DNA of 64,000 nucleotides, taken from the NCBI GenBank assembly GCA_964373915.1, contig CAYJWP010000001.1, positions 51,860 to 115,859 of the forward strand. Reading direction: 5' to 3'. The stretch comes from an uncultured Candidatus Saccharibacteria bacterium (GTDB taxonomy: Bacteria; Patescibacteriota; Minisyncoccia; UBA6257; UBA11618). Shown here piece by piece: positions 1-43,129 of this stretch. The position numbers and the translations under genes were made by a program. Each line of letters begins with the position of its first letter. Position 1 is the stretch's first letter. The notes beneath the pieces are model-generated. The model saw only the letters and a list, made by a program, of their open reading frames with translations, was not told where the DNA came from and searched no databases.

Positions 1-840
1 GGCCAATCTCATTCCACTATTGATATGCGTAAGGTAATGGATGAGGGGAAGATTCTGATAGTCAATCTATCCAAAGGAAAAATAGGCGAGGATAATTCAG
101 CTTTGCTGGGAGCGATGATTATTACCAAGTTGCAATTGGCCGCCATGTCCCGGGTTAATATACCCGAAAGCGAACGGCGCGATTATTTTCTTTTTGTTGA
201 TGAGTTTCAGAATTTTGCCACCGAATCTTTTGCTAATATTTTATCCGAGGCGCGCAAATACCGCCTTTCCTTGGTTTTGGCCAATCAGTATCTTGACCAG
301 CTGGACTATGGGGATAAGACTGCGGTTCGGTCGGCTATCTTCGGCAACGTGGGCACCATTGTTATTTTTAGGGTGGGCGCCAAAGACGCCGAGTTTTTAG
401 AGACCGAATTTGAGCCGGAATACGAAGCCAACGATCTGGTAAATTTAGCCAAGTACAACATCTACATTAAATTGATGATCGACGGAATTGCTTCGCGCCC
501 TTTCGCCGCTACTACGCTTTCTCCCTCTGAAAAGCCCGCGGAAAGCTTTAAAGACGTTATCGTTCTCAACACTCGCAGCCACTATGCCATACCGCGGCAA
601 AAAGTTGAGGAAACTATTGCCAGCCAGTGGATGCCGGAGGGAAAATCAACCGCCGAAAGAGCCGCTCGTCGCGAGGAAAAACCGCTTAGCCAAGCGTTAA
701 AACCTGAACTGGGCTTGAGGCACAGTTCGCCAAGAGAAGAACGCCAGCGGCAGGAGCATCAGCGTAAAACGGAAGTTAATATCGGCGAACTGAAAAAGGC
801 CCTTGAGGGCGCTCTAAATAAAGAGGAAAAAAAGAGTTAG
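1..840 (+). CDS. C-terminal part of a HerA/FtsK-like ATPase of the TraG/TraD/VirD4 coupling-protein family (5' end lies outside the window)
   Basis: In-frame from window start. Walker-B-like 'YFLFVDEFQNF' and 'LVLANQ' sensor motifs typical of type IV secretion / conjugal coupling ATPases. Charged low-complexity C-terminal tail. Confidence 0.55.
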   Translation, partial: GQSHSTIDMRKVMDEGKILIVNLSKGKIGEDNSALLGAMIITKLQLAAMSRVNIPESERRDYFLFVDEFQNFATESFANILSEARKYRLSLVLANQYLDQLDYGDKTAVRSAIFGNVGTIVIFRVGAKDAEFLETEFEPEYEANDLVNLAKYNIYIKLMIDGIASRPFAATTLSPSEKPAESFKDVIVLNTRSHYAIPRQKVEETIASQWMPEGKSTAERAARREEKPLSQALKPELGLRHSSPREERQRQEHQRKTEVNIGELKKALEGALNKEEKKS

Positions 841-5575: not shown

Positions 5576-5697
5576 GAAGCCTTGTTTTTTAGATTCCGGG
5601 TCAAGTAGTATTTCAAGTGGAGTCAATATCGCTTAGTTCTGTGGAATCAAGTTGAGACTTCAAAATTAATTCAAGCCGGAATTCTCAAAAACAAGGC
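5576..5697. repeat. long inverted repeat / predicted extended stem-loop between ndk and lepA
   Basis: 'AAGCCTTGTTTTT' (5576-5588) is the perfect reverse complement of 'AAAAACAAGGCTT' (5685-5697). It is extended by 'AGATTCCGG' / 'CCGGAAT' and encloses about 75 nt. Confidence 0.6.
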
Positions 5698-5705
5698 TTT
5701 TTAAT

Positions 5706-7493
5706 ATGGAAAACATTCGTAATTTTGTTATTATCGCTCATATTGACCACGGCAAGTCCACTCTAGCCGACCGCCTGCTGGAAATAACCGGCACGGTGGA
5801 CAAAAGGCATCTCCAACCTCAACATTTAGACCGATTAGAATCGGAAAGAGAAAGGGGAATTACCATTAAAATGGCGCCAGTGCGGATGATTTTTGGGGAT
5901 TATATACTGAATCTCATAGATACTCCCGGCCACAGTGATTTCGCTTATGAAGTTTCCCGAGCTCTGGCAGCCGTGGAGGGGGCGATATTGTTAGTTGATA
6001 TTTCCCAAGGCATTCAGGCGCAGACTTTGGCTAATTTTGAAACGGCTAAAAAAACTGGCCTTAAAATCATCGGCGCTGTTTCTAAAATAGACCTTAATTT
6101 GCCTCAAATAGAAGAAGTTGTTCAGTCCTTGGCCGAATTATTAGAAGTTAGAGAGGATGAAATTCTTAGAGTTTCCGGCAAAACGGGACAGGGCGTGGAA
6201 GAATTATTAGCAGCTGTTATTAAACGGTTTCCGCCGTCGCGCATTATTCCATCAAAAGAAGAAATTTCCCGCGCTCTCATTTTTGATTCTCTTTATGACG
6301 AACATAAGGGAGTAATTGCCTTTATAAGAATTTTTAACGGCAGTTTTAAAGGTAACGAGCAAATATCATTTCTAGCCACAAAATCAACCATTAAAGCTAA
6401 AGAGGTTGGATATTTTAATCCTCAATTGAAACCAGCTAAAGAATTATTCACGGGCGAGATTGGCTATATTGCCACTGGCCTTAAACAGCCGGAAAAAATA
6501 AAAATAGGTGATACAATTATTAATGTCAAAAATCAAAATCCAAATGTCAAAACTTTAGCCCTTCAGGGCTATAGAGAGCCTCAACCCGTAGTCTTTGTTT
6601 CTTTTTATCCCGAGGAAAATGATGACTATGATGATTTGAAAATTTCTTTGGCTAAATTAAAGCTTAACGACGCCTCCTTGTTTTTTGAGCCGGAAAGCAG
6701 CGAGCTTTTAGGCAGGGGATTTAAGGGAGGATTTTTAGGGAGATTGCACTTTGAGATTACCGCCGAACGGCTGGAAAAAGAATTTAATTTAAAAACAATC
6801 CAGAGCTTCCCCTCAGTTTCCTATCAGGTTAAGACCAGAAAGGGAGTGGAGGAAATCAGCAGTCCCAAGGATTTTCCCTATGATTATCTTGAAGTTTTAG
6901 AGCCAGTAATTCGGGTGGAAATCATTACCCCGCCTCAGTATTTAGGAGGCGTTTTGTCGCTCAAGCAGTTTTACAGAATAGGGGATTTTGAGACCAGAAA
7001 CATCGGCAATCGGGTAATTATTAAGGCCAAAATGCCCCTTGCCGACCTGATTAGCGATTTTGATGATAAGTTAAAATCCTTGTCAGAGGGCTACAGCTCT
7101 TTGAGTTATGAAATTATCGGTTATGAAAAAAGTAATCTGGCTAAGATGGAAATATTAATAGCCGGTCATCTTGTTCCCGGCCTGACCAGGATTATTCCAG
7201 CCGAGAGAATTGATCGCGAAGCCCGAACTACCGTGGGAAAACTTAAAGAATTTCTGCCTCGCCAGCAGTTCACTCAGGCGATACAGGCCGCCAGCGGCGG
7301 GCGGATTATTGCCCGTGAAACCATTGCTGCCCTTAAAAAAGATGTCACCGGCTACCTTTACGGCGGCGACCGCACCCGCAAGATGAAGCTTTGGAAGAAA
7401 CAGCAAAAAGGCAAGGCCAAACTTAAAGAACGGGCAGAATCTTCAGCTGTTCATATTCCGCCCTCTGTGTTTAAGGAGCTGCTGAAGAAATAA
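5706..7493 (+). CDS. lepA: translation elongation factor 4 (LepA)
   Basis: 595 aa. G-domain 'IIAHIDHGKSTLADRLLE' and a LepA-type C-terminal domain. Confidence 0.95.
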   Translation: MENIRNFVIIAHIDHGKSTLADRLLEITGTVDKRHLQPQHLDRLESERERGITIKMAPVRMIFGDYILNLIDTPGHSDFAYEVSRALAAVEGAILLVDISQGIQAQTLANFETAKKTGLKIIGAVSKIDLNLPQIEEVVQSLAELLEVREDEILRVSGKTGQGVEELLAAVIKRFPPSRIIPSKEEISRALIFDSLYDEHKGVIAFIRIFNGSFKGNEQISFLATKSTIKAKEVGYFNPQLKPAKELFTGEIGYIATGLKQPEKIKIGDTIINVKNQNPNVKTLALQGYREPQPVVFVSFYPEENDDYDDLKISLAKLKLNDASLFFEPESSELLGRGFKGGFLGRLHFEITAERLEKEFNLKTIQSFPSVSYQVKTRKGVEEISSPKDFPYDYLEVLEPVIRVEIITPPQYLGGVLSLKQFYRIGDFETRNIGNRVIIKAKMPLADLISDFDDKLKSLSEGYSSLSYEIIGYEKSNLAKMEILIAGHLVPGLTRIIPAERIDREARTTVGKLKEFLPRQQFTQAIQAASGGRIIARETIAALKKDVTGYLYGGDRTRKMKLWKKQQKGKAKLKERAESSAVHIPPSVFKELLKK

Positions 7494-7540: not shown

Positions 7541-7719
7541 CGGTCGGCTGGCCTCATCATGTCCAGCAGGTGATCCATCTCGCTAACGAGAGAGTCACTT
7601 TTTTGGATTAAATCGCTGTTCATTCGCTCGATTTGGCTGTGCTGGTCGGTATAAACCAATAACAGCCATCCGGCAGATGCAGCGAAAACGCAAGCCAACA
7701 GCACTAAAAGGTGTTTCAT
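7528..7719 (-). CDS. small signal-peptide/membrane protein (63 aa)
   Basis: Canonical minus-strand promoter (TTGACT-17-TATAAT at 7760-7787) and SD 'AAGGAG' 9 nt upstream of the ATG. Hydrophobic N-terminus 'LLVLLACVFAASAGWLLLV'. Confidence 0.5.
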   Translation of the reverse strand: MKHLLVLLACVFAASAGWLLLVYTDQHSQIERMNSDLIQKSDSLVSEMDHLLDMMRPADRPLN

Positions 7720-7734
7720 CGCTTTTTTCTCCTT

Positions 7735-7763
7735 TTCAAAAACACCACTCTGTCTGGTATTAT
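7735..7763 (+). promoter_or_regulatory. sigma70-like promoter (TTCAAA-17-TATTAT) for the 7800 gene
   Basis: Hexamers seen directly. Face-to-face with the minus-strand promoter, with overlapping -10 elements. Confidence 0.5.
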
Positions 7764-7787
7764 AGCATTATTATTATGATAAGTCAA
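7760..7787 (-). promoter_or_regulatory. sigma70 consensus promoter (TTGACT-17-TATAAT) for the 63-aa ORF
   Basis: Read on the minus strand as 'TTGACTtatcataataataatgcTATAAT'. Confidence 0.6.
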
Positions 7788-7799
7788 TATAAGCAAATA

Positions 7800-9239
7800 A
7801 TGGCGCTTTTAACGGCGGCGGGCATTTTTCTGCTTGTTGGAGCTTGGCTTTTAAATTCTTATACCGTTCAATCTCAAACCGAAGAGGAGCGGCTGATTAA
7901 TTCAATCAATTCCGCTATCAACGATCTCATTAATAATAGTGAAATAAGCCAAAAAATTAGGGATCTGGTCGGCAAGCCCACTGAAAACAAATCTTATTTT
8001 GATGATTACCTTCCTCCCCAGATATTTAATGACCTGATTAGCCATGGCCAAAAAGCTCAGGGTAGTTTTAGTATAATATTTGGCTTATTAAATGAAATTA
8101 GACAATTGTCTGGTAATTGCCAAACAGACGATGATAAAAAAAAGCTTATTAATAAAATTGAAGAACTCAACAACAACCTTTCTTTATTTATTGGTCATTT
8201 AACTAACTATCGCAAAGTTCTTGTGGAGGCGAGCTCCCTACTGGGCGATCCCGGTTTTTTTTCACCTTTTAAAAAGGGCTTTAAGGATAGGTTGAATCAA
8301 TCGGCTAGTGAATTAGGCCAAAGAATTACCGCTCTGCAAAAACGTCAAGCCGATCTTAATAGTCAAGTGCAATTGGGTAATCATATTAAATTAGCCGATA
8401 AATTATGTATAAAAAATGGCAATGGGCCTCCGCCTATTCCTCCGCCGGACAACGATATAAAAAATGAAGATGTCGCTGAGTGCGTTAAAGATTTTAACAA
8501 GCTTGCCGAATTAGCGAGAAAAATTTTATTCCACAGAACAACTCTTGACCAAAACACCTCAACTAATCTTAATTTTTTAATTACTAATCTGGAAGCCGCC
8601 GGCAGAAACTTCCCCTCACATTTTTCTTCATTACAGTCGGCTATTAATCGGCTAAATAAATTACTCTTATCGCCTTCTTTACGCCAAGTGGAAAAAAATG
8701 CTTTGGGGAGTTATTTAGCGTCTCTTAAACAATGCTTAAAAGTGACCAATGGAGAACAGCCTCCACCTCCTGCCGACAATGAAGATAGCGCCAGAATCAA
8801 AGAGTGCCACAAAAAGTACGACCGGCAATTGGTAGATTTTTTAGGGAAACTTCCCGCCTACTTTAGAATCCAGGCTCAAGAGCTAAAGAATAAGGCTGAT
8901 TCATTCCGGCAGGCCGCTTTTAAAGACCATAAAGATAGAATTAATCTGCTGGCGGACGGTCTTTTAAGTCTCGCTGACGAGATTGGGGGTTGGATTAAAG
9001 CTTGGGGAAGTAAGGTTCCTTTTAAAAATACCTACGAATTGATTGACGGCCTTATTGCCAAGTTTGAATACATTAAAGCCTACTATGAAGGCATAATAAA
9101 ATCTTTTCCTCTTCCTCCTAATCATCCTCAATCAATCGCTATGAAAAAGTATTATCAAAAAAAGATAGATTACGCCGATACAGTCATAAATGATCTTAAA
9201 AAATTAAAGGAAGACAAGCGAAAATGCGCCAACTGTTAG
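7800..9239 (+). CDS. hypothetical signal-anchored secreted protein, helical, with an internal duplicated Cys/Pro motif
   Basis: Start taken at ATG 7800 (MALLTAAGIFLLVGAWLL = TM/signal); the 7677 start is an ORF-caller extension. Duplicated module 'C..NG..PPP.PP.DN(D/E)...EC...'. Ends in 'KRKCANC'. Confidence 0.6.
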   Translation: MALLTAAGIFLLVGAWLLNSYTVQSQTEEERLINSINSAINDLINNSEISQKIRDLVGKPTENKSYFDDYLPPQIFNDLISHGQKAQGSFSIIFGLLNEIRQLSGNCQTDDDKKKLINKIEELNNNLSLFIGHLTNYRKVLVEASSLLGDPGFFSPFKKGFKDRLNQSASELGQRITALQKRQADLNSQVQLGNHIKLADKLCIKNGNGPPPIPPPDNDIKNEDVAECVKDFNKLAELARKILFHRTTLDQNTSTNLNFLITNLEAAGRNFPSHFSSLQSAINRLNKLLLSPSLRQVEKNALGSYLASLKQCLKVTNGEQPPPPADNEDSARIKECHKKYDRQLVDFLGKLPAYFRIQAQELKNKADSFRQAAFKDHKDRINLLADGLLSLADEIGGWIKAWGSKVPFKNTYELIDGLIAKFEYIKAYYEGIIKSFPLPPNHPQSIAMKKYYQKKIDYADTVINDLKKLKEDKRKCANC

Positions 9240-9262: not shown

Positions 9263-10150
9263 GTGGATATTAAATTTTTAAAATGGTTTGCGGTAATCGT
9301 TGTTTTTGTTCTGGCTCTGACGGTGGCTTTTACAAATCTATCCGTTTTGGGACAAGGCGTACCCCGGCAAAATAAGTGCGTTTTGACAATACTTGAGGCG
9401 GTAAGCGTTCCTCCCGATCTCCAAAAATCCGAAGCAAAATTTCATATAAAATACGAGATAAAAAATCACAAAGACGAAGGCCTGTGGTCTATGCCTGCCA
9501 CAGAAATAAAATGGCCGAATATCATATCTCATTTCAAAAATAAATATCCGGATTGTGTTATAGACAATCAGGCGGCGACTGTCACCTATATTAAACCCAG
9601 AACAGGGCAAGATCCCCCCGACCCCCGTCACAGGGGCAATGTTATAATGAATTTTGATATTAAAGATCACAGGCCGGGGAAGAGAACTAGAAGAATTAGC
9701 ACTCCCGGAGGGCGGTCTTTAATTGATTTTTTAAATAAAGAATACCCGGGTTATACTATCAAACTTACCACTCCTGGCTTTAGAGGTCCGGCTTTAGCGC
9801 CTCCGGAAGATCAGGCGCCGGTTTGCCGCTCCATCGGCACCCTTTATACCAGCCCTAACTGGGAAAATGACCCCGACGTTTTTACCTGTCCCCCGTGCAG
9901 GCAATTAGAGAATGATTTAAATAGTTTTACTAAAAAGCTGATTGGAGATAATGCGGATCTTAGAGATTTGCTTGTAAAAACAGGCTTTGACTGGAAAAAA
10001 TTCGTTAACATCAAAATCGGGTTTCCTCCCGATGAACAAGGTATTCCCCATTTAAATGGTGTCAGCGATTCAGGAGTGATAGCATCTCAAATTAAAAAAG
10101 CTATGCAGGATTATATTGCAGAATTACGGCGGTGGAACACAAACAGATAA
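9263..10150 (+). CDS. hypothetical signal-anchored secreted protein (Cys-containing)
   Basis: N-terminal TM 'WFAVIVVFVLALTVAF'. Several Cys including 'FTCPPCRQLEN'. No recognisable domain. Confidence 0.55.
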   Translation: MDIKFLKWFAVIVVFVLALTVAFTNLSVLGQGVPRQNKCVLTILEAVSVPPDLQKSEAKFHIKYEIKNHKDEGLWSMPATEIKWPNIISHFKNKYPDCVIDNQAATVTYIKPRTGQDPPDPRHRGNVIMNFDIKDHRPGKRTRRISTPGGRSLIDFLNKEYPGYTIKLTTPGFRGPALAPPEDQAPVCRSIGTLYTSPNWENDPDVFTCPPCRQLENDLNSFTKKLIGDNADLRDLLVKTGFDWKKFVNIKIGFPPDEQGIPHLNGVSDSGVIASQIKKAMQDYIAELRRWNTNR

Positions 10151-10159
10151 AGAAAATAG

Positions 10160-11233
10160 ATGAGCAAAAATAATTTAAAATGGCTTGTAATTTTCGTGTC
10201 ATTGATTTTGGGGATGGCGATTGTTTTGCCTAAAACTAATTTTATTCTAGCCCAGTTTATTCCCAGTGGAACTATTGTCAGCCAAGAAAAAATACCCGGC
10301 ACTGACAATTATAAAGTAAAGATAGATTACGGCGGCATCACTATAGAAATAACGGCTTCGGCAAGAGAGTCGTCTAGGGAGTTTTTAGAAAACTTTTTAG
10401 GCGTCAAGTTAGTTGTTCCGCCAGCCTCTTCTCCGGAGCCAGTGCCCGCAAAGGATTGCCCGGAAACTTTTAAGATTGATTTAACCAATCGAATTAGGTT
10501 TGGGGTAAACGGAAAAAGAATTGACGAGGAAGTGGCTACATCAAATTTTCAATTATCACACGATAAAAATGACCATGAGGCCAGCCATGGCATCAATAGC
10601 ACGGCTCGCGCTATATACGCAGGCGTTCGTGAGGGTACCGGCGTGCATATTGGTTTTGACGAAAATGGCAAAGCCATTGTTACTTGGGTTGATGAGCCTA
10701 GGGGCAATATTTTGGGACTTATTGCTAGTAATGTTGTTCCCGATTTTTTTAAGAATCCGCCGGGTTTGATGAATCGTTACCGAACTTATTTAACAGGCGC
10801 CCGCCAGCGCAACATTGATGAAATCTCTAATTTGTTTGATGAATGGGGCGCTTACAATGCCGGAGGAGAAGCTCGTTTGAGAATGAGAATCAATGGGCAA
10901 AAAAAAGCTCTCGATGGAACGGATTTGAATCTGGCAAACATAATTGAGGGTCCGGCGGATTATATAATCATTGGTGGATCGGTTGCCCTTTATTTAAGAA
11001 ACAACGACCCAAGGTATTTTCAAAGCGCTCAATTTAAAAACTTTTTTAAATTCCAAATAGAAAAAAGCGCAACGCTTATCAATAAAGGCTTGGCAACCGG
11101 TGATATTTCTGATGCCGGCCATACTAATTTTATGTTAGATAATCTAAGAAAGAATCCCCAAGCGGCTAGGATTCGTCAAGTTTTAGTAGAACTTTACGGC
11201 CGCGACTGGACGCAAAGAGTCTTAGGTTTTTAA
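10160..11233 (+). CDS. hypothetical signal-anchored secreted protein
   Basis: N-terminal TM 'WLVIFVSLILGMAIVL'. 357 aa. No recognisable domain. Confidence 0.55.
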   Translation: MSKNNLKWLVIFVSLILGMAIVLPKTNFILAQFIPSGTIVSQEKIPGTDNYKVKIDYGGITIEITASARESSREFLENFLGVKLVVPPASSPEPVPAKDCPETFKIDLTNRIRFGVNGKRIDEEVATSNFQLSHDKNDHEASHGINSTARAIYAGVREGTGVHIGFDENGKAIVTWVDEPRGNILGLIASNVVPDFFKNPPGLMNRYRTYLTGARQRNIDEISNLFDEWGAYNAGGEARLRMRINGQKKALDGTDLNLANIIEGPADYIIIGGSVALYLRNNDPRYFQSAQFKNFFKFQIEKSATLINKGLATGDISDAGHTNFMLDNLRKNPQAARIRQVLVELYGRDWTQRVLGF

Positions 11234-11254
11234 AATTTATGTTAGCATAAACAT

Positions 11255-12397
11255 ATGCGGGAAAATAAAAAACATTTTTTATTTTTATTATTGCTTTTAG
11301 TAGCGTTCGTCTTAGTTTTATTTTTTATTTTATTTAGTTCCAAGTTACAGTTTTCTTATCAAGCCTTAAATGCAGCGCAAGAAGATCAAAATATATTAAG
11401 AGGAAGTCAATTTGTTAGCGTTGGCGACGGTTTAGGACAGGTTGTCAACGTTGTCAGGGGGGGCGGTGATCAATTTCCTAATGAATCTTACTATTGGCTA
11501 TACATTATTGCTCTATCACAATCATGCCAAAGGGAGGGGGGGTGGTTACCTTGGGTCTTTGGAGGAGGTAGCGGTTCTTCTTTAGAATCCAAACAACTCT
11601 TTGCAAGTATTTTTGATGTTCTATATAGTTTTTTTAATAAAACCAGTAAAGTTTTTGCTCTCCAGGGCGGCGGTTTTGGCCCCCCAGTTGTTGATCCACC
11701 CCCAGATCCGATTCCTATCCCGGCTCCTGCTCCATCTTCAAGAAGAGACATAATAACTATAGGAGTTGGTTTACAATATTGTTGGGGAGGAAGTGCTCCT
11801 ATTCGTCCATTTGTGGATTTTCTTTCGCGGACGGGAAGAAGGCTGTTGCCAATGATTATAGAAGTAGGGGGCAATCTTCGGTATTGGCCCATGGAGGGAA
11901 CTCGGGATGTAGCGTGGCTGGTCAAGCCAGTTGATTCATCAGCTGGCGCTGGGTTGAATATGATAATAGTTAGAGTTGACAAAAGCACACCAGTTAAATC
12001 ATCCAAACGTCCTGGATTTTTCCCAACACTGAAATCGGTAATACCTACCCCAGTTGATCCCCAAACGTTTGCTGATCCAGTAGGTGGTTCTATAACAATT
12101 AGGTTTCCTTTTGGAAAAAGAGATGGAGGTAGATATTTAGCAGAATTTAAGGAGCGTTGCGCTTTGGCTAATGAGCCACTTATAGAAAATGGCGTTGAAT
12201 ACTATAAACTGTCTAGTTTGCCAAATTTAAAAAAATACCGAATGAAAGACCTGCCAATAGGTAGTAAAGTTTACCAGAATGGAAAGGAGGTTGGCGTTTA
12301 TGTAGGCAACGGAAAAGTTTTACCATCCCGATACATTTTGCAGTTTTATAATGCTGTGGCAAAGCAAGTACCCAAGCCTCCTATTATTAGTAGATGA
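11255..12397 (+). CDS. hypothetical signal-anchored secreted protein with a Pro-rich linker
   Basis: N-terminal TM 'FLFLLLLLVAFVLVLFFILF', linker 'PPVVDPPPDPIPIPAPAPS', and a C-terminal 'VYQNGKEVGVYVGNGKVL' segment faintly reminiscent of NlpC/P60-type motifs (weak). Confidence 0.55.
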   Translation: MRENKKHFLFLLLLLVAFVLVLFFILFSSKLQFSYQALNAAQEDQNILRGSQFVSVGDGLGQVVNVVRGGGDQFPNESYYWLYIIALSQSCQREGGWLPWVFGGGSGSSLESKQLFASIFDVLYSFFNKTSKVFALQGGGFGPPVVDPPPDPIPIPAPAPSSRRDIITIGVGLQYCWGGSAPIRPFVDFLSRTGRRLLPMIIEVGGNLRYWPMEGTRDVAWLVKPVDSSAGAGLNMIIVRVDKSTPVKSSKRPGFFPTLKSVIPTPVDPQTFADPVGGSITIRFPFGKRDGGRYLAEFKERCALANEPLIENGVEYYKLSSLPNLKKYRMKDLPIGSKVYQNGKEVGVYVGNGKVLPSRYILQFYNAVAKQVPKPPIISR

Positions 12398-15795: not shown

Positions 15796-17238
15796 CTAAA
15801 ACCAACCCAGCAGGAATTGAGCTACCAACCCTAAAAATTCTTTTGATTCTATTCTCTTTGATTGAGGTTGTTGCAACTGCATCTGTAATTCTATAGAACG
15901 GAAATCTATATTTTCAGGAATTAATGACCTGAATTGTTCCGGTATTTGTGTAGGCGCTCCTTCAAGCAGGAAATTATTTAATCCTTCAAGGCTGGGCGGA
16001 GGAGGCCCCTGATAGTCCTTATCCGGAAATGAGTCTTGTCTTCCCGGAAACTCTTCCTGTCTGCTCGGGAAAGACCTGTCTTCTAAGCCCGGCGGCGTAA
16101 AATCAGCAAAACAACCTCGCATAATTTCCGGCATTTTAGTCCTCATTTCGAAAGGATTAAAATCAGGGCTATTCAGCAACTCTTCCAGTTTGGGCCCGAC
16201 GCACTCTGTAATCCCCGGCGGAGCATTTCCAGTTTCTTCATTAATCCGGCGGCGCACCTCCTCTTTTATTCGTCCACTTTCTCCTTTGGGGATGATTTTA
16301 TTAAAATTAAAATCTGGATTTTCTTTTTTAATCTCCTCAAAGAATTGTTCCGCTAATTCCGGCTTTGCATCAAAAACTTTTTCGCACTCCTGCCGGTTGC
16401 GACAACCTGTTTTTTCTTTGATTTTACGGGCAAACCGCGCTTCTTCTTGGCCGATAATCCCGTGCTCTATAGCAAAGGCGAAACAGACTTCCTCGTTGGC
16501 CGGATTGTCACAGTGTTTTTCACAAGCCCTTCCCCGACAACCTCCGGGACCCACTCCGCCGGTCTTTTTGACGATGCTGGCCTCTTGTTCTGTCATAAAA
16601 CCGGCGGCCACGCCGAACTTTATGCACTCATCCATTCTCTCCGGTTTAAAATCTCCGCCATCCGGCCCGCCGGCGCCAAAACAATAAGTCTCGCACTCCT
16701 CTTTATTGCGGCAACTGCCGGGAGTTTTAACGCCTCTTGCTAGAGCATCCCTGATTTTTTTCGCCTCTTCTAACTCTTGCCTGTCCATCACGTCATACTT
16801 TTCAGCGTAAGCCACACACTCATTAATATTGGCGACATCATCACAATAAGCGCGGCATTCATCAAAGCCTTGGCATCCGCCCGGCCCAGCGCCGCCTCTT
16901 AGCGATTGCGATAATTTCTCTACCTCGCTAGCCTCCTTGTTAGCGATAGGCCCCTCTAATAAGTTGTGTTTTTTAGCGAAAGCAAAACAAGCGGCAAAAT
17001 TATCGGGCTGGTCGCAATATAATCGGCACTCCTTTTCATTTTTACAGCCGCCTAATTCCTCTACGGGATAAACAATATCGTCCTTGGTGGCGGCTCCTGC
17101 CAGCGGCAACATCAGGAACAGAAAAAACAAAACTGCTAAAGTCGTAATAATTTTATTGTCCAGCTTATTACTCAAAGGGATTTTGATAAGTGTTTGAAAA
17201 TGGATTGGCTTTTTCCACCGGATTGACATCTTGGACAT
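15796..17238 (-). CDS. secreted cysteine-rich tandem-repeat protein (five C-x5/6-C-x3-C-x7/9-C modules) with a Pro-rich C-terminus
   Basis: Signal/TM 'IITTLAVLFFLFLMLPLAGAA'. Repeats 'GGCKNEKECRLYCDQPDNFAACFAFAKKH', 'GGCQGFDECRAYCDDVANINECVAYAEKY', 'GSCRNKEECETYCFGAGG...', 'GGCRGRACEKHCDNPANEEVCFAFAIEHG', 'TGCRNRQECEKVF'. Confidence 0.6.
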   Translation of the reverse strand: MSKMSIRWKKPIHFQTLIKIPLSNKLDNKIITTLAVLFFLFLMLPLAGAATKDDIVYPVEELGGCKNEKECRLYCDQPDNFAACFAFAKKHNLLEGPIANKEASEVEKLSQSLRGGAGPGGCQGFDECRAYCDDVANINECVAYAEKYDVMDRQELEEAKKIRDALARGVKTPGSCRNKEECETYCFGAGGPDGGDFKPERMDECIKFGVAAGFMTEQEASIVKKTGGVGPGGCRGRACEKHCDNPANEEVCFAFAIEHGIIGQEEARFARKIKEKTGCRNRQECEKVFDAKPELAEQFFEEIKKENPDFNFNKIIPKGESGRIKEEVRRRINEETGNAPPGITECVGPKLEELLNSPDFNPFEMRTKMPEIMRGCFADFTPPGLEDRSFPSRQEEFPGRQDSFPDKDYQGPPPPSLEGLNNFLLEGAPTQIPEQFRSLIPENIDFRSIELQMQLQQPQSKRIESKEFLGLVAQFLLGWF

Positions 17239-32668: not shown

Positions 32669-32674
32669 AAAAAA

Positions 32675-33056
32675 GGAAACTTAAATAGCAGCTGTTGTCC
32701 GCCATCGTTAAAGCTATAGCGGATGATAGAGGAAAGTCCGGACACTTGCCCAGCGCATATGCTGTGCGGTGGGAATGGTAGTAGTCGAAAGGCTACCGGT
32801 ATAAGCTGATGCCAGAGACAATAGGCATCGGTGAAGCCAGAGGTGCGAGCAGTGACGCTTTGGAGCGAAAGCTCTGAAGGGGCCCGATCCCAAGCTAGTT
32901 GGCCTAATCCAGTATAGGGATAAAAAACTGGGGTGAAACGGCTAAATCCTTACCTGAGTGCAAGGCCGTATCCTGAGTTTATCGAAGGAGGTGCCGCATA
33001 GATAAATTGCTATTATCCGCCAGCTGGCGGAACAGAATCCGGCTTATTGGTTTCCC
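32675..33056 (+). ncRNA. rnpB: RNase P RNA (bacterial type A-like)
   Basis: Universal elements 'GAGGAAAGTCCGGAC' and 'GGGGTGAAACGGC', plus 'ACAGAATCCGGCTTAT' just before the 3' strand of P1 (ggaaac / gtttcc). About 380 nt. Confidence 0.85.
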
Positions 33057-33102
33057 AAAAACTCCCCTCCGCCGGTTGGCGGAATAGGGGAGTTTTTGTT
33101 TT
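33057..33102 (+). terminator. rho-independent terminator after rnpB
   Basis: 'ACTCCCCT...AGGGGAGTTTTTGTTTT'. Confidence 0.75.
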
Positions 33103-33130
33103 GACTTTTAAATGAAAAAGTGCTTATAAT
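33101..33130 (+). promoter_or_regulatory. sigma70-like promoter (TTGACT-17/18-TTATAAT) for the IDO-like gene
   Basis: Followed by a strong SD 'AAAGGAGAGGG' 6 nt before the ATG at 33175. Confidence 0.55.
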
Positions 33131-33174
33131 TCGTCAGTTTTTAGCACCTTGAATTTTCACAAAGGAGAGGGCAA

Positions 33175-34293
33175 ATGAATGTTTTACAAGGAGAAAGATT
33201 TCAAGGCCTCAATCGCCTAATGGAAAACCTTCCTTATTATTTCTCCACCGGCTTAATCAGGGGAGCTCACTACACCCATCGGCTGGAATCTCATGCCGAA
33301 CTTCACAAGCTTAATATTGATGAATTAAAAAACTTAGAAGCGTTAGCTTTATTTCGTGACTTGGCTTTTGCCTCCGCCGCCTTTTACCATGCTCGTAACG
33401 CTGATCCAATAGAAAATCTGCCGCGGTGCTATGCCGTTCCCTTGCATGAGTTATCCAAAAGATTCGGCGTCAGGCCGACTCTTTCTTACTTCCTTTACGC
33501 TCAAGCCAACTGTTACGCTCCCAATCCTGGCAGGCCGTTCTCTCTAGACAACGCTAGAACTATCCGCCACTTTGTCAGCGTAATGGATGAAGAGTGGTTC
33601 ATTATCATTCACGCTGTCATTGAAGATATTTTTGCCAACTTCGGTAAAACGGGAATTAAAAAAGTTTGTCTTTGCTTGGAACGCAACGATAAAGATTATG
33701 TCCTTTTAGGCTTCCGTAATATTAATTTTGCCCTAAATGAAATCTACAAAGTGTTCCTGCAAATGCCCTTGGGCTGTAATCCGCATGTTTACTTTAAAGA
33801 AGTGCGGCCGCAGATTATGCCTTTCAAAAATTTAATTTACAATGGCGTTGCCGAACTGGAAGAAAAACCGCAGTCATTTGTCGCTGGTGAAACCGGCGCC
33901 CAAAGCACTATTATGCCGATTCTGGATGCCTTTACCGGCACCAAGCACGCCCCGACCGACGGCTTTAATTTCGTCAGAGAGATGAGGAATTATATGCCGC
34001 GCAGAGAACTTCAACTTATTGAATCACTGGAGAGAGGACCTTCGGTAAAAGAGTTTGTTGTTGGAAGCGGGATTCAGCTGCTGGCCGAAGAATTTGATAA
34101 TATTGTTCTGGGGAAACACCGGTTTCGCCAGCTTCATTATAGATACGCCCAAGATTATATATTCCAATTTAAAGAATTAACTCCCCAAGATGGCACAGGG
34201 GGCACTCCGGCTTCTAAGTGGCTGAAGCAAATGGAGGAGGAAACGTTAGATAATCTTATTGACAAAAGCCGTATGCCCACCAACCCCGCCTAG
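33175..34293 (+). CDS. indoleamine 2,3-dioxygenase (IDO)-family heme dioxygenase-like protein
   Basis: Blocks alignable from memory to human IDO1: 'LPRCYAVPLHELSKRF...PTLSY...ANCY', 'FVAGETGAQS', 'FVREMRNYMPRRELQLIESLERGPSVKEFVVGSG', 'GTGGTPASKWLKQMEEET'. Candidate proximal His in 'RQLHYRY'. Confidence 0.8.
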   Translation: MNVLQGERFQGLNRLMENLPYYFSTGLIRGAHYTHRLESHAELHKLNIDELKNLEALALFRDLAFASAAFYHARNADPIENLPRCYAVPLHELSKRFGVRPTLSYFLYAQANCYAPNPGRPFSLDNARTIRHFVSVMDEEWFIIIHAVIEDIFANFGKTGIKKVCLCLERNDKDYVLLGFRNINFALNEIYKVFLQMPLGCNPHVYFKEVRPQIMPFKNLIYNGVAELEEKPQSFVAGETGAQSTIMPILDAFTGTKHAPTDGFNFVREMRNYMPRRELQLIESLERGPSVKEFVVGSGIQLLAEEFDNIVLGKHRFRQLHYRYAQDYIFQFKELTPQDGTGGTPASKWLKQMEEETLDNLIDKSRMPTNPA

Positions 34294-34303
34294 CGGGGTT
34301 TTT
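34284..34303. terminator. bidirectional hairpin terminator overlapping both convergent stop codons
   Basis: 'CCCCGCCTAGCGGGGTTTTT'. Confidence 0.65.
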
Positions 34304-35267
34304 AATATAAAAGCCCGCCCTTTGGCCTTGTTGGATAAAGGTCGGGATCAATAGTTCTCTCAAAGCAAACTTGGCCTTTATTGTGTTCCCAGTTCTGTTG
34401 ATTAGGGTCGCCACGATAGAATTCTTTTGCCGGCACTGGGACAGCTCTATTATTATCGCTCATGCCTAAACTAGCCGTCCTAAAACCAGCGCACAGTTCA
34501 AAAGAAAGAAACTTGCCGACAATAATATTATACTCATAATCAGCTCCCGTTTCTGGGTCCTTAGGCGCAATAAAGCCGCTAATACTGTCTGTTAAATCAA
34601 CCAAATTAGCGGGCAATTTATTCTTGTTCATCCAATAGTTGATAATTTGCCCCTGAATATTCTGCAGATCATTAATTCTCTGCTCATCAATTCGTACCTG
34701 TCTTTGATAAAAAGGGGAGCCAACAACAACAAATCCGGCAACTATCACCGCTAAAATAACAACGGAAACCGTCCAAGCTAGAATTTTAGGCAAACTGGAT
34801 GCTGGAAAACGCCTTATTTTTAAATCCCAAATATAATAACCAAAAACCGAACCAGCGGTAACAAACACCGCCAAAACCTTTAGAAGAAAACGAGCGGTTA
34901 ATTCGCCGCTTAAAAAATTGTAAACCAAACCGACTAAATCGCCAATAATGATTAATGAAGCAACGAAAAGAGTAAAATAGATGAGCCACTTTCTTAGTTT
35001 TAATTCTCTTTTTTCGGGATGTAACTTAAATTCTTTGGCTAAAAGCCACGAAGTCAAAATATAAACGGGAAAAATAACTATCAGCGCCGCCGTTGATTGG
35101 CGGATTGTGTTTAAAATTCCCTGATAATAAAAACCAAGCTGGTCGGGAAAAAGAACGTTTATATACTGAAAAAGCAGGGCCACAAAACTGCCGGCGCTGG
35201 CATAAAGCGCCGCTATCATTAACAAATGGACAAAAATCTCCTTGGGAGACGTCTTTAAATTCATCAC
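34302..35267 (-). CDS. hypothetical polytopic membrane protein (about six N-terminal TM helices plus a C-terminal soluble domain)
   Basis: Hydrophobic helices throughout the N-terminal 200 aa. C-terminal Cys pair 'FELCAG...GQVCFER'. Confidence 0.5.
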   Translation of the reverse strand: MMNLKTSPKEIFVHLLMIAALYASAGSFVALLFQYINVLFPDQLGFYYQGILNTIRQSTAALIVIFPVYILTSWLLAKEFKLHPEKRELKLRKWLIYFTLFVASLIIIGDLVGLVYNFLSGELTARFLLKVLAVFVTAGSVFGYYIWDLKIRRFPASSLPKILAWTVSVVILAVIVAGFVVVGSPFYQRQVRIDEQRINDLQNIQGQIINYWMNKNKLPANLVDLTDSISGFIAPKDPETGADYEYNIIVGKFLSFELCAGFRTASLGMSDNNRAVPVPAKEFYRGDPNQQNWEHNKGQVCFERTIDPDLYPTRPKGGLLY

Positions 35268-36209: not shown

Positions 36210-36291
36210 GTTTTTTTATTAATCAATTATTTAACGACCTTTGAAAATAACTTTCTTTATTATATCCTATCATGCTTGGTGATTAAACGTG

Positions 36292-36362
36292 TTGCCAGAG
36301 AAGGAATCGAACCTTCATACTGGGCTTCAAAGGCCCATGTCCTACCATTAGACGACCTGGCA
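36292..36362 (-). tRNA. tRNA-Gln (anticodon TTG)
   Basis: Minus strand. Acceptor TGCCAGG/TCTGGCA (with a G-U pair), D-arm GTCT-AATGGTA-GGAC, anticodon stem TGGGC/GCCCA with loop CTTTGAA, T-arm GAAGG-TTCGATT-CCTTC. Confidence 0.85.
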
Positions 36363-38725: not shown

Positions 38726-39543
38726 ACTCCAGATTTTTTTTATTTTCTTTAGCCTTGGTGGCTATAATTCTTATCAGCAACAATCCCCGAGATGGCAGCA
38801 GGGAGATTCTTACTAACAAGCAGATACAAGCCACTAGTGTCAGAGCCGAGTACCAGACGCCAGAACCCCGACAATTGATTGCCAGCATTCCGGATCCACC
38901 CATAGATCTTCACCTTCAATCTGCCTCAGTTAAAAATCTCGGTACTAATTTTTATTTCCTGGAAATTAATACCGACCAGCAATGGCCCATAGCTTCTCTG
39001 ACTAAATTATTAACAGCGGTGGTAGCTCTAGAAAATAAAGAGGCTGACATCCAGGTAATCGATGGGCTGGTGAAGATGATGATGATTATTTCTAGCAACA
39101 AAGCGGCGGAGCGGCTAGCGAGTCTAAAAAATCGGGAGGAGTTCATCCAAAAAATGCAGGCAAAAGCAGTTGATTTGGCTATGAACCACACTGGTATTTT
39201 TGACCCAACCGGTCTATCATTTCTTAATCAATCCACCGTCCGAGACCTGGAAAAATTGATTGGCTATATCATTAAAAACCATCCCAAAATTCTGCAATTC
39301 AGCCGAGAAAAAGAAATAGACGTCAATGGACAAAAAATAGCAAATATCAATCGTTTTGCGGGCCAAAGTAATTTTATGGGGGGCAAAACCGGCTACACCG
39401 ATGAAGCCAGCGGCAACCTTATTTCTATTTTCCAATACCAGGGACAACCGATGCTGATAATCGTTTTGGGAACAACTGACAAATTGGAGCGCTTTGCGCA
39501 GACGGAAAAACTCTTCCAATGGATTTCCAAATTTTACAATTAG
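38722..39543 (+). CDS. D-alanyl-D-alanine carboxypeptidase (peptidase S11, PBP5-like)
   Basis: 'SLTKLLT' (SxxK), 'SSN', 'KTG' motifs. Signal peptide. Confidence 0.8.
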   Translation: MNSRFFLFSLALVAIILISNNPRDGSREILTNKQIQATSVRAEYQTPEPRQLIASIPDPPIDLHLQSASVKNLGTNFYFLEINTDQQWPIASLTKLLTAVVALENKEADIQVIDGLVKMMMIISSNKAAERLASLKNREEFIQKMQAKAVDLAMNHTGIFDPTGLSFLNQSTVRDLEKLIGYIIKNHPKILQFSREKEIDVNGQKIANINRFAGQSNFMGGKTGYTDEASGNLISIFQYQGQPMLIIVLGTTDKLERFAQTEKLFQWISKFYN

Positions 39544-40571
39544 TAAAAACTTTAGGCATCACGGTGGTCTCTTTCGCTATCGCTCTAGGCCTAACACCAA
39601 CGCTAACCCTTCTCCTGCGCCGCTATCAGATGCACAAACAGATCAGAACCAGCGATAGCGCGCCGATCTTTTCCCAACTGCACAAAAAAAAGGCGGGGAC
39701 GCCAACCGCCGGCGGTATTATCATCTGGGTAACAGTATTGGGACTGGCTTTTATTTTTTGGCTGATGAATATTATGTTTGACCAAGTTTGGAGCTATCTC
39801 AATTTTGTTGACCGCGCCCAAACTTATTTACCGTTAGCGGCTATGTTTATCGCCGCTGGCCTCGGCTTATCGGATGATATTTTAGGAATAATGCGTATTG
39901 GCCCTAGGGGCGGGGGACTGCAAGTCAGCCAAAAAATCATCTTGTATTTCTTTGTCGCTCTCATGGGCGCTCTCTGGTTTTATTATCGTCTAGACTGGGA
40001 TGTTATTCATGTGCCTTTTTTTGGTAATTTTGTTATTGGCTGGTGGTACATACCATTTTTTATTTTTGTTCTTACTGCCAGCGCTTTTTCGGTCAACGAA
40101 ACTGATGGCTTGGATGGCTTAGCCGGCGGCGTACTCTTATTTGCTTTTACCGCCCTGACGGTCGTCGCTTTTATTCTTGGCCGTTTTCATTTAGCCGCTT
40201 TTGGAGGCGCTGTTGTCGGAGGCCTGCTGGCTTTTTTATGGTTCAATATCTATCCGGCAAGATTTTTTATGGGGGACACTGGCTCTATGGCTCTCGGCAT
40301 TACCTTAGGCACGATAGCCATGCTCACTAACACCGCCCTGCTGTTGCCGTTTTTTGCTATTATTCCGGTGATAGAATCGCTCTCGGTTATAGTCCAAATG
40401 TCCAGTAAAAAACTTCGGGGAAAGAAAATCTTTCTCTCCACCCCCATTCATCATCACTTTGAAGCCATCGGCTGGGAGGAGAGCCAAATCACTATGCGCT
40501 TTTGGATTATCTCTTCTATTTTCACCACGCTGGGGCTGGTAATATTTTTCTTAGATCGCTTTTTGAGCTAG
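39519..40571 (+). CDS. mraY: phospho-N-acetylmuramoyl-pentapeptide transferase
   Basis: 'GTPTAGG', 'NETDGLDGLAGG', 'MGDTGSMALG'. Confidence 0.92.
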   Translation: MDFQILQLVKTLGITVVSFAIALGLTPTLTLLLRRYQMHKQIRTSDSAPIFSQLHKKKAGTPTAGGIIIWVTVLGLAFIFWLMNIMFDQVWSYLNFVDRAQTYLPLAAMFIAAGLGLSDDILGIMRIGPRGGGLQVSQKIILYFFVALMGALWFYYRLDWDVIHVPFFGNFVIGWWYIPFFIFVLTASAFSVNETDGLDGLAGGVLLFAFTALTVVAFILGRFHLAAFGGAVVGGLLAFLWFNIYPARFFMGDTGSMALGITLGTIAMLTNTALLLPFFAIIPVIESLSVIVQMSSKKLRGKKIFLSTPIHHHFEAIGWEESQITMRFWIISSIFTTLGLVIFFLDRFLS

Positions 40572-40580
40572 AATTCACTT

Positions 40581-42014
40581 GTGCTTCTTATTAAAAACGT
40601 CAAGATAATTGACGGCACCGGCAAACCCGCTTATCCGGCAGATGTTTTGGTCAGCGGTGATAAAATATCCGCCATTGGCAATTTTCCCAGCAAGAAATCC
40701 GACGAAACTATTGAAGGCCTCGGCGGCTATTTAACCCCGGGCTTTATTGATATCAACACGGACTCCGACCACCAACTGACGCTTTTCACCAATCCCGGTC
40801 AGGAAAATTTTCTCTTGCAAGGAGTGACCACCATCATCGGCGGCCACTGCGGCTCTTCGCTGGCGCCGCTTCTTTATGGCTCACTGGAATCAATCCGCAA
40901 GTGGACCGACACTGACCAAGTCAATGTTGATTGGTTAAGCTTTGAAGAGTTCTTAAACGCCCTTAGAAAAAAACGGCTGGGCGTTAATTTTGGCAGTTTG
41001 GTGGGCCACTCCACCATTCGGCGAGCCTTGATAGGCGAAGATAAGCGCGATCTCACAGAAAAAGAAATGAAAATTTTTATGGTTTTAGTGCGCGACTCAC
41101 TAGAACAGGGGGCGTTGGGTTTTTCTACCGGCCTTGGTTATGCCCATTCCCGCCAAACGCCATATAGAGAAATCAAAAGCCTTGTCGGCCTTTTAGCTAA
41201 TTATAACGGTGTTTATACCACCCATCTGCGAGATGAAAAAACAGATGTTTTCAACTCTGTTAATGAAACATTAAAAATATATAAAGAAACCGGCGTGAAG
41301 ACGGTTATCTCCCACTTCCGGCCTCTGATTGGCTTTGAGAAAAATTTTGAATCTGCTATGGAATTGATAGAAAAAAGCGCTGATCGCATGGACTTTCATT
41401 TTGACGTTTACCCTTTTAACACCAGCATTGTTCCCATTTATACCCTTCTGCCTCTTTGGGCCCAGAAAGGCGGCTTAGCGGAAATGTTGGCCGTTATTAT
41501 TGACCCTAATCTTCAAAAAAATATCATTAAAGAATTACCCAGATTTAAAAACGGCGACCTGACAATTGCCTATTCTCCGGCCAATAAAATACTTGCCAAC
41601 AAAATCATTGCCGATAAAAAAGAATTGCTGGAAATTATGATAGCGACCGGCTTGCGGGCCTTGGTCTTTTATAAAAATATAGATTACAAGCGATTAGAGG
41701 AGGCTATTTTTTCTGAAAAATCTCTTATTGCCTCCAACAGCGGCGGACTGGGGGAAAGGGCAACCAGCACTTTTACTAAATTTCTGGAACTGGCGTCTAT
41801 CCGCAAAGATTATCCTTTAGAGGAAGCTATTAAAAAAATCACCTCATCGCCGGCGGCTAAGTTTAATATTAAAAACAGAGGATTTGTTAAAGAGGGCGGC
41901 CAAGCCGATTTAGCGGTTATTCTTAATAATAAAATTCAGCACGTGATAGTTAACGGCATCATAGCCGTCCGCAATGGTAAGTACCAACAATCTCTAGCCG
42001 GAAAAGTTATATGA
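40581..42014 (+). CDS. amidohydrolase-family protein (D-aminoacylase / N-acyl-D-amino-acid deacylase-like) in the position usually held by murD
   Basis: 'LLIKNVKIIDGTG...ADVLVSGDKISAIG...GGYLTPGFIDINTDSDH' (the usual HxH replaced by 'NTDSDH'), 'GGHCG', C-terminal 'GQADLAVI...VIVNGIIAVRNGK'. GTG start. Confidence 0.7.
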   Translation: MLLIKNVKIIDGTGKPAYPADVLVSGDKISAIGNFPSKKSDETIEGLGGYLTPGFIDINTDSDHQLTLFTNPGQENFLLQGVTTIIGGHCGSSLAPLLYGSLESIRKWTDTDQVNVDWLSFEEFLNALRKKRLGVNFGSLVGHSTIRRALIGEDKRDLTEKEMKIFMVLVRDSLEQGALGFSTGLGYAHSRQTPYREIKSLVGLLANYNGVYTTHLRDEKTDVFNSVNETLKIYKETGVKTVISHFRPLIGFEKNFESAMELIEKSADRMDFHFDVYPFNTSIVPIYTLLPLWAQKGGLAEMLAVIIDPNLQKNIIKELPRFKNGDLTIAYSPANKILANKIIADKKELLEIMIATGLRALVFYKNIDYKRLEEAIFSEKSLIASNSGGLGERATSTFTKFLELASIRKDYPLEEAIKKITSSPAAKFNIKNRGFVKEGGQADLAVILNNKIQHVIVNGIIAVRNGKYQQSLAGKVI

Positions 42015-43129
42015 TTTTTAGCAAGAAATTAAGGCGGATTAGAAGGCGGGGGAAAAATGATTATCTGATTATTTTCTGTTTAATTTTTCTAGTGGTGGTT
42101 GGCATAGTTATTTTATCCAGCGCCTCATCCAATATTGGCAAAACAAAATTTGACGATAGTTATTATTATCTTAAGCACCAGTTAATGTTTGGCTTTAGTA
42201 TAGGCCTGTTAGGATTTTTTATAGGCTCTTTTTTCTATTATCGTTATTTAGAAAAAATAGCCGTCCCCATGCTGCTCTTCAGTATTTTTTTATTAGCTCT
42301 AGTTTTTACCCCTTTAGGGATACAAGCTGGCGGAGCCGAACGCTGGTTGGAGTTGGGGCCTATTTCTTTTCAGCCGTCAGAGATTCTTAAAATTTCCCTT
42401 GTCGTTTATCTAGCCGCCTGGTTAAGCAAAAGAAGGGATAGGGTTTCTAGTTTTACCAGAGGCCTTTTACCGCTGTTGGTGGTTGTCGGAACAATAAGTT
42501 TTCTTCTCCTTAAACAGCCCAGCACTACTTCAGCGGCCATTTTTATAGCCATTTCCATGATTGTTTATTTTGTCAGCGGCGCCAGACCTCTTTATATTGT
42601 CACTATAGTTTTAATGGGCCTGTTAGTCTTAGGCGCGACTATTTATCTCACACCCTACCGTTGGGAAAGAATTCAAGCATTCTTAAATCCGGAGGCTAAT
42701 CTGCAGACCAGTGGTTATCACATCAACCAAGCGTTAATCGCTATCGGCAGCGGCGGGTGGTGGGGTGTTGGTTACGGCCAGTCCAATGCCAAAATTCTTT
42801 ATCTGCCGGAGCCGATAGGGGATTCTATATTTGTCATTATTGCTGAAGAACTAGGTTTTGTTGGAGTTTTGGCTGTAATAGGAATATTTGCCTTATTAGT
42901 AATGAGAATTTTTTTGATTGCCGGCAAGGCCAGAGATAAATTTGGCCAACTGCTCTTAATTGGTTTTGGCTCATTGATAGCCATTCAGGTTTTTATTAAT
43001 ATCGCCTCCATTTCCGGCGTTATTCCTCTTACCGGCGCCCCCTTGCCCTTCATCAGCTATGGCGGCACCGCGCTAGCGGTTTTTATGACTATCGCTGGCA
43101 TTATTAACAATGTCTCTAAGTACAGTTAA
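42011..43129 (+). CDS. ftsW: SEDS-family peptidoglycan glycosyltransferase FtsW/RodA
   Basis: Ten-TM SEDS protein with 'GGAERWLELGPISFQPSEILKI'. Confidence 0.9.
   Translation: MIFSKKLRRIRRRGKNDYLIIFCLIFLVVVGIVILSSASSNIGKTKFDDSYYYLKHQLMFGFSIGLLGFFIGSFFYYRYLEKIAVPMLLFSIFLLALVFTPLGIQAGGAERWLELGPISFQPSEILKISLVVYLAAWLSKRRDRVSSFTRGLLPLLVVVGTISFLLLKQPSTTSAAIFIAISMIVYFVSGARPLYIVTIVLMGLLVLGATIYLTPYRWERIQAFLNPEANLQTSGYHINQALIAIGSGGWWGVGYGQSNAKILYLPEPIGDSIFVIIAEELGFVGVLAVIGIFALLVMRIFLIAGKARDKFGQLLLIGFGSLIAIQVFINIASISGVIPLTGAPLPFISYGGTALAVFMTIAGIINNVSKYS

Follow-up and report, generated by a model that had tools for sequence, protein, structure and literature searches.

Does a bacterium of the candidate phyla radiation (CPR) carry a genuine heme dioxygenase of the indoleamine dioxygenase (IDO) family, and what would such a cell do with it? 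The question is raised by a gene in a 64,000-nucleotide stretch of an uncultured bacterium (assembly GCA_964373915.1, contig CAYJWP010000001.1, positions 51,860 to 115,859), hereafter called the window. CPR bacteria are usually modelled as heme-free fermenters. Our analysis identifies the gene as a real, rare member of the IDO family in an unexpected lineage, with well-documented vertical inheritance.

An earlier note on this DNA, made from the sequence alone, had assigned the 372-aa product to the IDO family and named profile and structure comparisons as checks. Both were run and both returned strong matches. The PF01231 (IDO) profile matched with 143.1 bits (cutoff 26, E 1.4e-41) over profile positions 53-408 of 412, which places the assignment far above chance level; no NCBIfam model matched the protein. 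A phmmer search against the PDB retrieved human IDO1 (E ~5e-25) and IDO2 (E ~1e-21) and nothing else of significance. The AlphaFold2 model, built with 50 homologues (predicted local distance difference test, pLDDT, 92.2; predicted template modelling score, pTM, 0.91; low confidence only at the GTGG loop, residues 340-343), predicts the two-domain helical fold of IDO and is closer to IDO than to PrnB or TDO. Neither by sequence nor by structure was TDO a better match than IDO or PrnB the closest relative, and no biosynthetic cluster surrounds the gene. We regard membership of the IDO family as near certain.

The residues expected to handle heme and substrate are in place. Over residues 27-362, the human IDO1 sequence used for the alignment matches that of the PDB alignment on visual comparison, and its computed numbering reproduces H346 and T379. 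The proximal His, which the earlier note had located in the motif RQLHYRY, is H321; it aligns with IDO1 H346 and is invariant in alignments of 19 and of 50 sequences. The other residues mapped to IDO1 (R211, F142, Y105 and G340-T341-G342-G343; Table 1) are likewise invariant among the 50 homologues, as are H146, Y206, G238, T240, G241, Q243, Y328 and T344. In IDO1 structures, Arg231 and Thr379 of the JK loop contact the amino-acid moiety (carboxylate, ammonium) of tryptophan. The enzyme had been described as host-like, a description that does not hold: it carries the bacterial signature of His at the position of IDO1 S167, GETGAQS in place of GGSAGQS, and Tyr at the positions of C129 and F226. 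The His at the S167 position occurs in essentially all bacterial homologues. Three features are specific to the CPR clade: GETGAQ is preceded by an additional residue, a QIMPFK motif is present, and the IDO1 L384 position, occupied by Phe in other bacterial IDOs, holds Ala.

The contig belongs to the CPR, as had been assumed, and is not a contaminant. The best matches of its LepA are at most 70% identical, and all named ones are labelled Patescibacteria group, Ca. Harrisonbacteria, Parcubacteria group or another CPR phylum. Among its core housekeeping and CPR-typical genes, the window encodes aminoacyl-tRNA synthetases, LepA, SecY, ribosomal proteins, PGK, dnaX, ScpAB, FtsEX, ComEC, MraY/FtsW/MurG and DUF5671, and its proteins lie on one 152,670-bp contig at NCBI. 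Besides the LepA relatives, the presence of DUF5671, a diverged rnpB and synteny with a metagenome-assembled genome (MAG) of Ca. Harrisonbacteria are features of a CPR host. The carrier is a small subclade of Parcubacteria (Paceibacteria) near Ca. Harrisonbacteria. An IDO match, a proximal His and a CPR contig, the lack of any one of which the earlier note had named as grounds for giving up its proposal, were thus all found.

In order to trace the history of the gene, related IDO loci (L-numbers) and IDO protein sequences (P-numbers) were compared. An exhaustive search gave 1,371 cluster representatives for the whole IDO family, of which only a handful are more than 36% identical to the window protein; in a word-indexed search the nearest relative was P0002 at 53%, followed by others at 38-49%. 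Locus L003 (IDO 38-41% identical) repeats the window's upstream order, S41 protease-L9-L27-PGK-DHH-RNase H-rnpB-IDO, including the adjacency of rnpB (5608-6022) and IDO (from 6130). The loci L002, L006 and L027 (IDO 39-45%) repeat its downstream order, IDO-DUF5671(-)...dnaX(-)-ScpA-ScpB; L027 and L031 stem from one MAG labelled Ca. Harrisonbacteria. IDO is 38-40% identical between these loci, and the divergence of the flanking orthologues is comparable, with identities of 34% (ScpA), 40% (ScpB), 42% (L9), 47-48% (dnaX), 49-50% (DUF5671), 51% (DHH), 52% (RNase H), 59% (PGK) and 61% (S41), which together with the shared gene order argues for vertical inheritance. The G+C content of the gene (0.445), that of its third codon positions (GC3, 0.461) and its synonymous codon usage all lie at |z| <1 relative to 58 window genes, so that the comparison with neighbouring genes proposed earlier points to a native gene.

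In a neighbour-joining analysis, the eight CPR IDO sequences form a clade in 200/200 bootstraps. Its sister group (P0063, P0067 and P0019; 72% support) is at least partly CPR as well, because P0063 adjoins an FtsX that is 51% identical to the CPR-type FtsX of the window. The IDOs of freshwater Actinomycetota, which dominate the genome scan, form a separate clade. Between L002 and L006, the closest clade members with DNA available, dS is 0.55 and the ratio of non-synonymous to synonymous substitution rates (dN/dS) is 0.093, and the heme and substrate residues are intact across the whole CPR clade. These comparisons indicate an old, vertically inherited gene under purifying selection in a small Paceibacteria subclade. 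Synteny, composition, clade support and dN/dS imply that any horizontal acquisition predates the diversification of this subclade; the earlier suggestion of a horizontally acquired gene can hold only for an ancient event, a recent transfer being contradicted by native composition, synteny and purifying selection.

The clade is rare, with about 10 distinct sequences across all collections searched. A pattern-based scan of GTDB species representatives, which do not include the genome of the window, used a pattern derived from a 7-sequence alignment and recovered IDO in about 3-4 CPR-labelled genomes, and the metagenome scan added a single CPR-clade locus (L036, identical to L006). Look-ups for identical proteins located the IDO and nine of ten housekeeping proteins of the window in the collection, the exception being the DUF5671 protein; the only copy of the exact window gene that could be retrieved is on a 1.5 kb Logan contig. 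The IDO closest to that of the window after P0002 (49% identical; L005, 1337-2391) is split between two reading frames near 1546-1564; a frameshift, pseudogene formation or misassembly of this single-run Logan contig could account for the split. More distant homologues outside the CPR clade were found in L030 and L051 (both 3-773; 27% identical, labelled Ca. Saccharibacteria) and in L004 (6399-7706, P0056; 30% identical, labelled only 'bacterium'), and there may be more than one IDO lineage in the CPR.

What might the protein do? Its conserved His ligand, Arg211 and GTGG loop point to an enzyme with heme b whose substrate is tryptophan or a closely related indole amino acid, and we posit, with a probability of roughly 0.6, that it is a heme-b-dependent tryptophan or indoleamine dioxygenase needing scavenged heme. 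It would be a cytoplasmic, monomer-type heme-b oxygenase of the bacterial IDO subtype. His321 would hold ferrous heme, to which O2 would bind, Arg211 and the GTGG loop would position the substrate, and insertion of both oxygen atoms at the C2-C3 bond of L-tryptophan, or of a closely analogous indole amino acid, would open the ring and yield N-formylkynurenine. Loading with heme b is what we infer from the conserved ligand and pocket, and the substrate and the onward fate of the product are likewise predictions. Patescibacteria have been reported to lack any heme biosynthesis (bioRxiv 10.1101/2021.01.11.426183), so the cofactor would have to be scavenged, either from a host or from the surrounding water; dissolved heme is present at picomolar to nanomolar concentrations in natural waters (bioRxiv 10.1101/2021.01.11.426183). 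Vertical inheritance and purifying selection suggest that the gene serves a real function in organisms that meet oxygen.

Several observations weigh against a tryptophan or indoleamine dioxygenase. Neither the 64 kb window nor the flanks of L002, L003, L005, L006 and L027 yielded a kynurenine formamidase, kynureninase or kynurenine 3-monooxygenase (KMO), and no gene for heme uptake, heme biosynthesis or respiration was seen in the window or the flanks of the related CPR loci, so that nothing visible there would consume N-formylkynurenine or supply heme. Tryptophan activity varies widely among bacterial IDOs: efficient turnover is confined to one of three IDO branches (mammals, fungi, Gemmatimonas, Streptomyces scabiei), and the enzymes of Erythrobacter litoralis and Neptuniibacter caesariensis, from the other branches, are very slow on tryptophan (PMC4217691). 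P0057, which is 65-69% identical to Neptuniibacter IDOs, has the same bacterial motif signature as the CPR protein. Given how slow the tested enzymes outside the IDO1 branch are, the physiological substrate is uncertain. The pocket may also differ, because in the CPR clade Ala replaces the Phe of other bacterial IDOs and one residue is inserted before GETGAQ. Finally, the window protein, and it alone, is shorter at its N terminus by ~25 residues, among them a GFLP motif that occurs in at least 90% of its relatives; no remnant of this segment was seen upstream in any frame.

The gene contexts of P0021 and P0057 offered no pathway clue. P0021 lies on a 269 kb non-CPR contig (L034, 6336-10742), where the gene before IDO encodes an Amidohydro_3 protein and the one after it a protein with a DMFA2_C (dimethylformamidase-type) domain, both possible formamidase partners. 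An amidohydrolase of the window (40581-42014, +) was considered as a formamidase partner and rejected: it is D-aminoacylase-like (PDB 1m7j, E 7.6e-47), lies 6 kb away in a cell-wall cluster and is unrelated to the L034 amidohydrolase. Situated between mraY (39519-40571) and ftsW (42011-43129), it occupies the usual place of murD, and no Mur-ligase domain was detected in its product.

A credible alternative, though one we consider rather unlikely, is a heme-binding protective or sensing protein, not engaged in tryptophan catabolism, in a cell without catalase and respiration. Such a protein could consume O2, superoxide or H2O2 in the manner of the peroxygenase and antioxidant-type activities of IDO, or bind O2 or NO reversibly as IDO-like myoglobins do; an IDO-family myoglobin exists in abalone (PMC4191572). 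The missing kynurenine-pathway genes and the slow tryptophan turnover of enzymes outside the IDO1 branch (PMC4217691), including the Neptuniibacter type whose motif signature the CPR protein shares, fit this proposal, as do redox genes near IDO in relatives (MsrA and VKOR in L003, AhpC/peroxiredoxin in L005). These redox neighbours, however, vary from locus to locus, nothing resembling a reductase partner is apparent, and the invariance of Arg211 and of the GTGG-loop Thr in the clade argues for an amino-acid substrate. An extension of this idea, more doubtful still, holds that the Paceibacteria subclade uses an IDO-type protein, with heme from a host or the surroundings, as its main means of handling O2, superoxide or H2O2, or of altering the tryptophan/indole signalling of a host, and not for tryptophan catabolism. 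If this were true, the presence of the gene would indicate heme piracy and an oxic, host-associated CPR lifestyle. In two separate CPR sublineages, the gene immediately upstream of IDO encodes a metal permease of the ZIP family, mostly with the arrangement FtsE-FtsX-ZIP-IDO (L002, 2500-3261; L031, 4451-5221; L005, 457-1221; L006 and L036, partial), and no ZIP gene occurs within the 64 kb of the window. The transporter might be part of the same module.

It is improbable that the enzyme, instead of acting on free tryptophan as a dioxygenase, tailors a secondary metabolite or some modified form of tryptophan or indole with chemistry similar to that of PrnB or MarE. The clade-specific pocket changes (Ala at the IDO1 L384 position, the insertion before GETGAQ) would suit such a role and both PrnB and MarE were retrieved as more distant structural relatives, but there is no sequence-level match to PrnB, and no locus holds a biosynthetic gene cluster, all neighbours being housekeeping genes. 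The loss of the GFLP segment and the split L005 copy could suggest a decaying relic without current function, yet the low dN/dS of L002 versus L006, the intact heme and substrate residues of the clade, the intact window gene with its expression signals and the confident, complete structure model make this very improbable. Equally remote is a recent acquisition or a mis-binned or contaminant segment, for instance from freshwater Actinomycetota: IDO is rare in CPR and many scan matches are Actinomycetota, but the 64 kb that hold the gene, part of a 152 kb contig, consist of CPR housekeeping genes, its G+C content, GC3 and codon usage are within one standard deviation of the window genes, its position is conserved on both sides in relatives with equally diverged flanks, and its fully supported clade is separate from that of the Actinomycetota.

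The immediate surroundings of the gene were as the earlier note had described them, with rnpB upstream and a membrane-protein block reaching to tRNA-Gln downstream (Table 1), and its promoter, Shine-Dalgarno sequence and hairpin terminator are all present as consensus or sequence matches. The range 33101-34305 given there covers the gene plus these expression signals. The downstream hairpin is directly followed by the T-rich tail TTTTAATAT and sits between the convergent IDO and DUF5671 genes; beyond the latter, three small hydrophobic open reading frames (ORFs) precede the tRNA gene. On the upstream side, the inner stem of the hairpin that ends rnpB was also picked up by the terminator scan. 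In this region, 9 promoter-like sites were counted against 3.8 in shuffled sequence and 9 terminator-like sites against 2.7, all of them consensus matches only. Relatives have weaker promoter equivalents upstream of IDO (TTGACC-17-TTAAAT in L003, TGcTATAAT in L002), and comparable hairpins follow IDO in L002 and L003. From the monocistronic layout, the promoter-like site and the terminator-like hairpin, the gene is predicted to be transcribed on its own.

Table 1. Coordinates of the IDO gene, its signals and neighbours (window numbering), and of key residues of its product (protein numbering)
Feature	Position	Strand	Remarks
IDO-family (PF01231) heme oxygenase gene	33175..34293	+	372 aa, ATG start
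Sigma-70-like promoter	33101..33130	+	TTGACT (33101-33106), 18-nt spacer, TATAAT (33125-33130); 11/12 consensus matches; consensus match only
Shine-Dalgarno sequence	33162..33171	+	AAGGAGAGGG; ends 4 nt before ATG, AGGAG core 7 nt before ATG; read from sequence
Intrinsic-terminator-like hairpin	34282..34300	+	8 pairs (6 G-C), 3-nt loop; TAG stop codon inside loop; overlaps end of IDO
Diverged RNase P RNA gene rnpB, upstream neighbour	32673..33061	+	full-length RF00010 match, 43 bits, E 4.9e-12, gathering score 100
G+C-rich hairpin and T-run ending rnpB, separating it from the IDO promoter	33062..33100	+	CTCCCCTCCGCCGGTTGGCGGAATAGGGGAG then TTTTTGTTTT; read from sequence
DUF5671 membrane protein, convergent downstream neighbour	34302..35267	-	PF18920, E 2.4e-23
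tRNA-Gln(ttg)	36291..36362	-	
Proximal His	H321		IDO1 H346; in RQLHYRY
Substrate Arg	R211		IDO1 R231
Distal aromatic residue	F142		IDO1 F163
Tyr	Y105		IDO1 Y126
JK loop	G340-T341-G342-G343		IDO1 G378-T379-G380-G381; loop G340-T-G-G-T344
Distal His	H146		position of IDO1 S167
Heme/substrate loop	G238-ETGAQ-S244		

The rnpB genes of this CPR lineage are full-length RF00010 matches with large stretches of the model unaligned, both in the window and in L003 (53 bits, 5608-6022). Both score below the curated gathering threshold and are missed there; the window copy appears only in a permissive search. At the start of the window, an ORF at 25-840 (+) has TraG/TrwB-type coupling-protein domains, hinting at a gene related to type IV secretion or conjugation. 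Several large ORFs (295-520 aa; 7677-9239, 9263-12397 and 15796-17238 (-)) have no Pfam match, and two of them, 7677-9239 and 15796-17238, were also checked against NCBIfam and gave no match; they may be lineage-specific CPR proteins.

How surprising, then, is an IDO in this lineage? The lineage itself is unexpected, as the earlier note held, but the surprise is smaller than it supposed: O2-using enzymes of CPR, including KMO in 2 Paceibacteria MAGs, were reported in 2025 (PMC12577380), and heme proteins are established in the heme-auxotrophic, streamlined acI Actinomycetota (bioRxiv 10.1101/2021.01.11.426183). IDO (K00463) is absent from the main text and the text-form supplements of the former study (PMC12577380), and literature searches that combined IDO with the names CPR, Patescibacteria or Parcubacteria turned up no description of this gene. 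Both the enzyme family and its chemistry are established, so the gene does not represent a new kind of system. Its interest lies in a predicted heme-dependent, O2-using enzyme type that is inherited vertically and under purifying selection in a Parcubacteria subclade. An IDO in CPR would imply scavenged heme and contact with oxygen, and thus offers a testable handle on whether and how CPR cells obtain heme and on how certain CPR bacteria tolerate oxygen or turn it to use. The recently published oxic adaptations of groundwater CPR (PMC12577380) are extended by a specific enzyme, which also provides a compact, N-terminally shortened bacterial IDO for comparative enzymology.

Among known systems, PrnB, SO4414 and TDO are the most remote, with much lower structural scores, 12-17% identity and no sequence-level match to the window protein. 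Human IDO1 (e.g. PDB 5WMU) is only 26-27% identical, and shares the proximal His (H346 = H321), the substrate Arg (Arg231 = R211), F163 = F142, Y126 = Y105 and the GTGG motif of the JK loop. The window protein differs from it by His for S167, Tyr for C129 and F226, GETGAQS for GGSAGQS, a shorter JK loop without an IPASQQPKENK-type insert, and the absence of ~30 N-terminal residues. The freshwater acI Actinomycetota (Nanopelagicaceae), whose IDOs are 31-36% identical to the window protein, provide a parallel in that IDO is kept in a streamlined lineage unable to make heme. Their IDOs, however, form a clade distinct from that of the CPR, and acI are free-living aerobes with respiratory chains. 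IDO is carried by L020 (4852-12863) and some 15 related loci of Actinomycetota, among them L012, L019, L025 and L048. One acI subclade has an Opp/Dpp-type ABC transporter upstream of IDO, separated from it by a 5-bp gap, and a convergent M13 peptidase gene downstream; in another acI subclade (~75% identical IDO) the genes are not adjacent in this way.

Bacteria of many kinds have IDO genes (PMC4191572), and the bacterial IDOs of Yuasa, Ushigoe and Ball (2011), as summarised in PMC4217691 and PMC4191572, are the remaining point of reference. With those of the Neptuniibacter/Marinobacterium type (P0057), at 29-36% identity, the window protein has in common the distal His, Y-x-x-Y, GETGAQS and GTGGTP, as well as the stand-alone gene without an obvious kynurenine operon. 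The CPR clade is set apart from this type by a separate, 100%-supported branch, by the extra residue before GETGAQ, the QIMPFK motif and the Ala for Phe that follows the GTGGTP loop, and by its host, a heme-auxotrophic, ultra-small bacterium.

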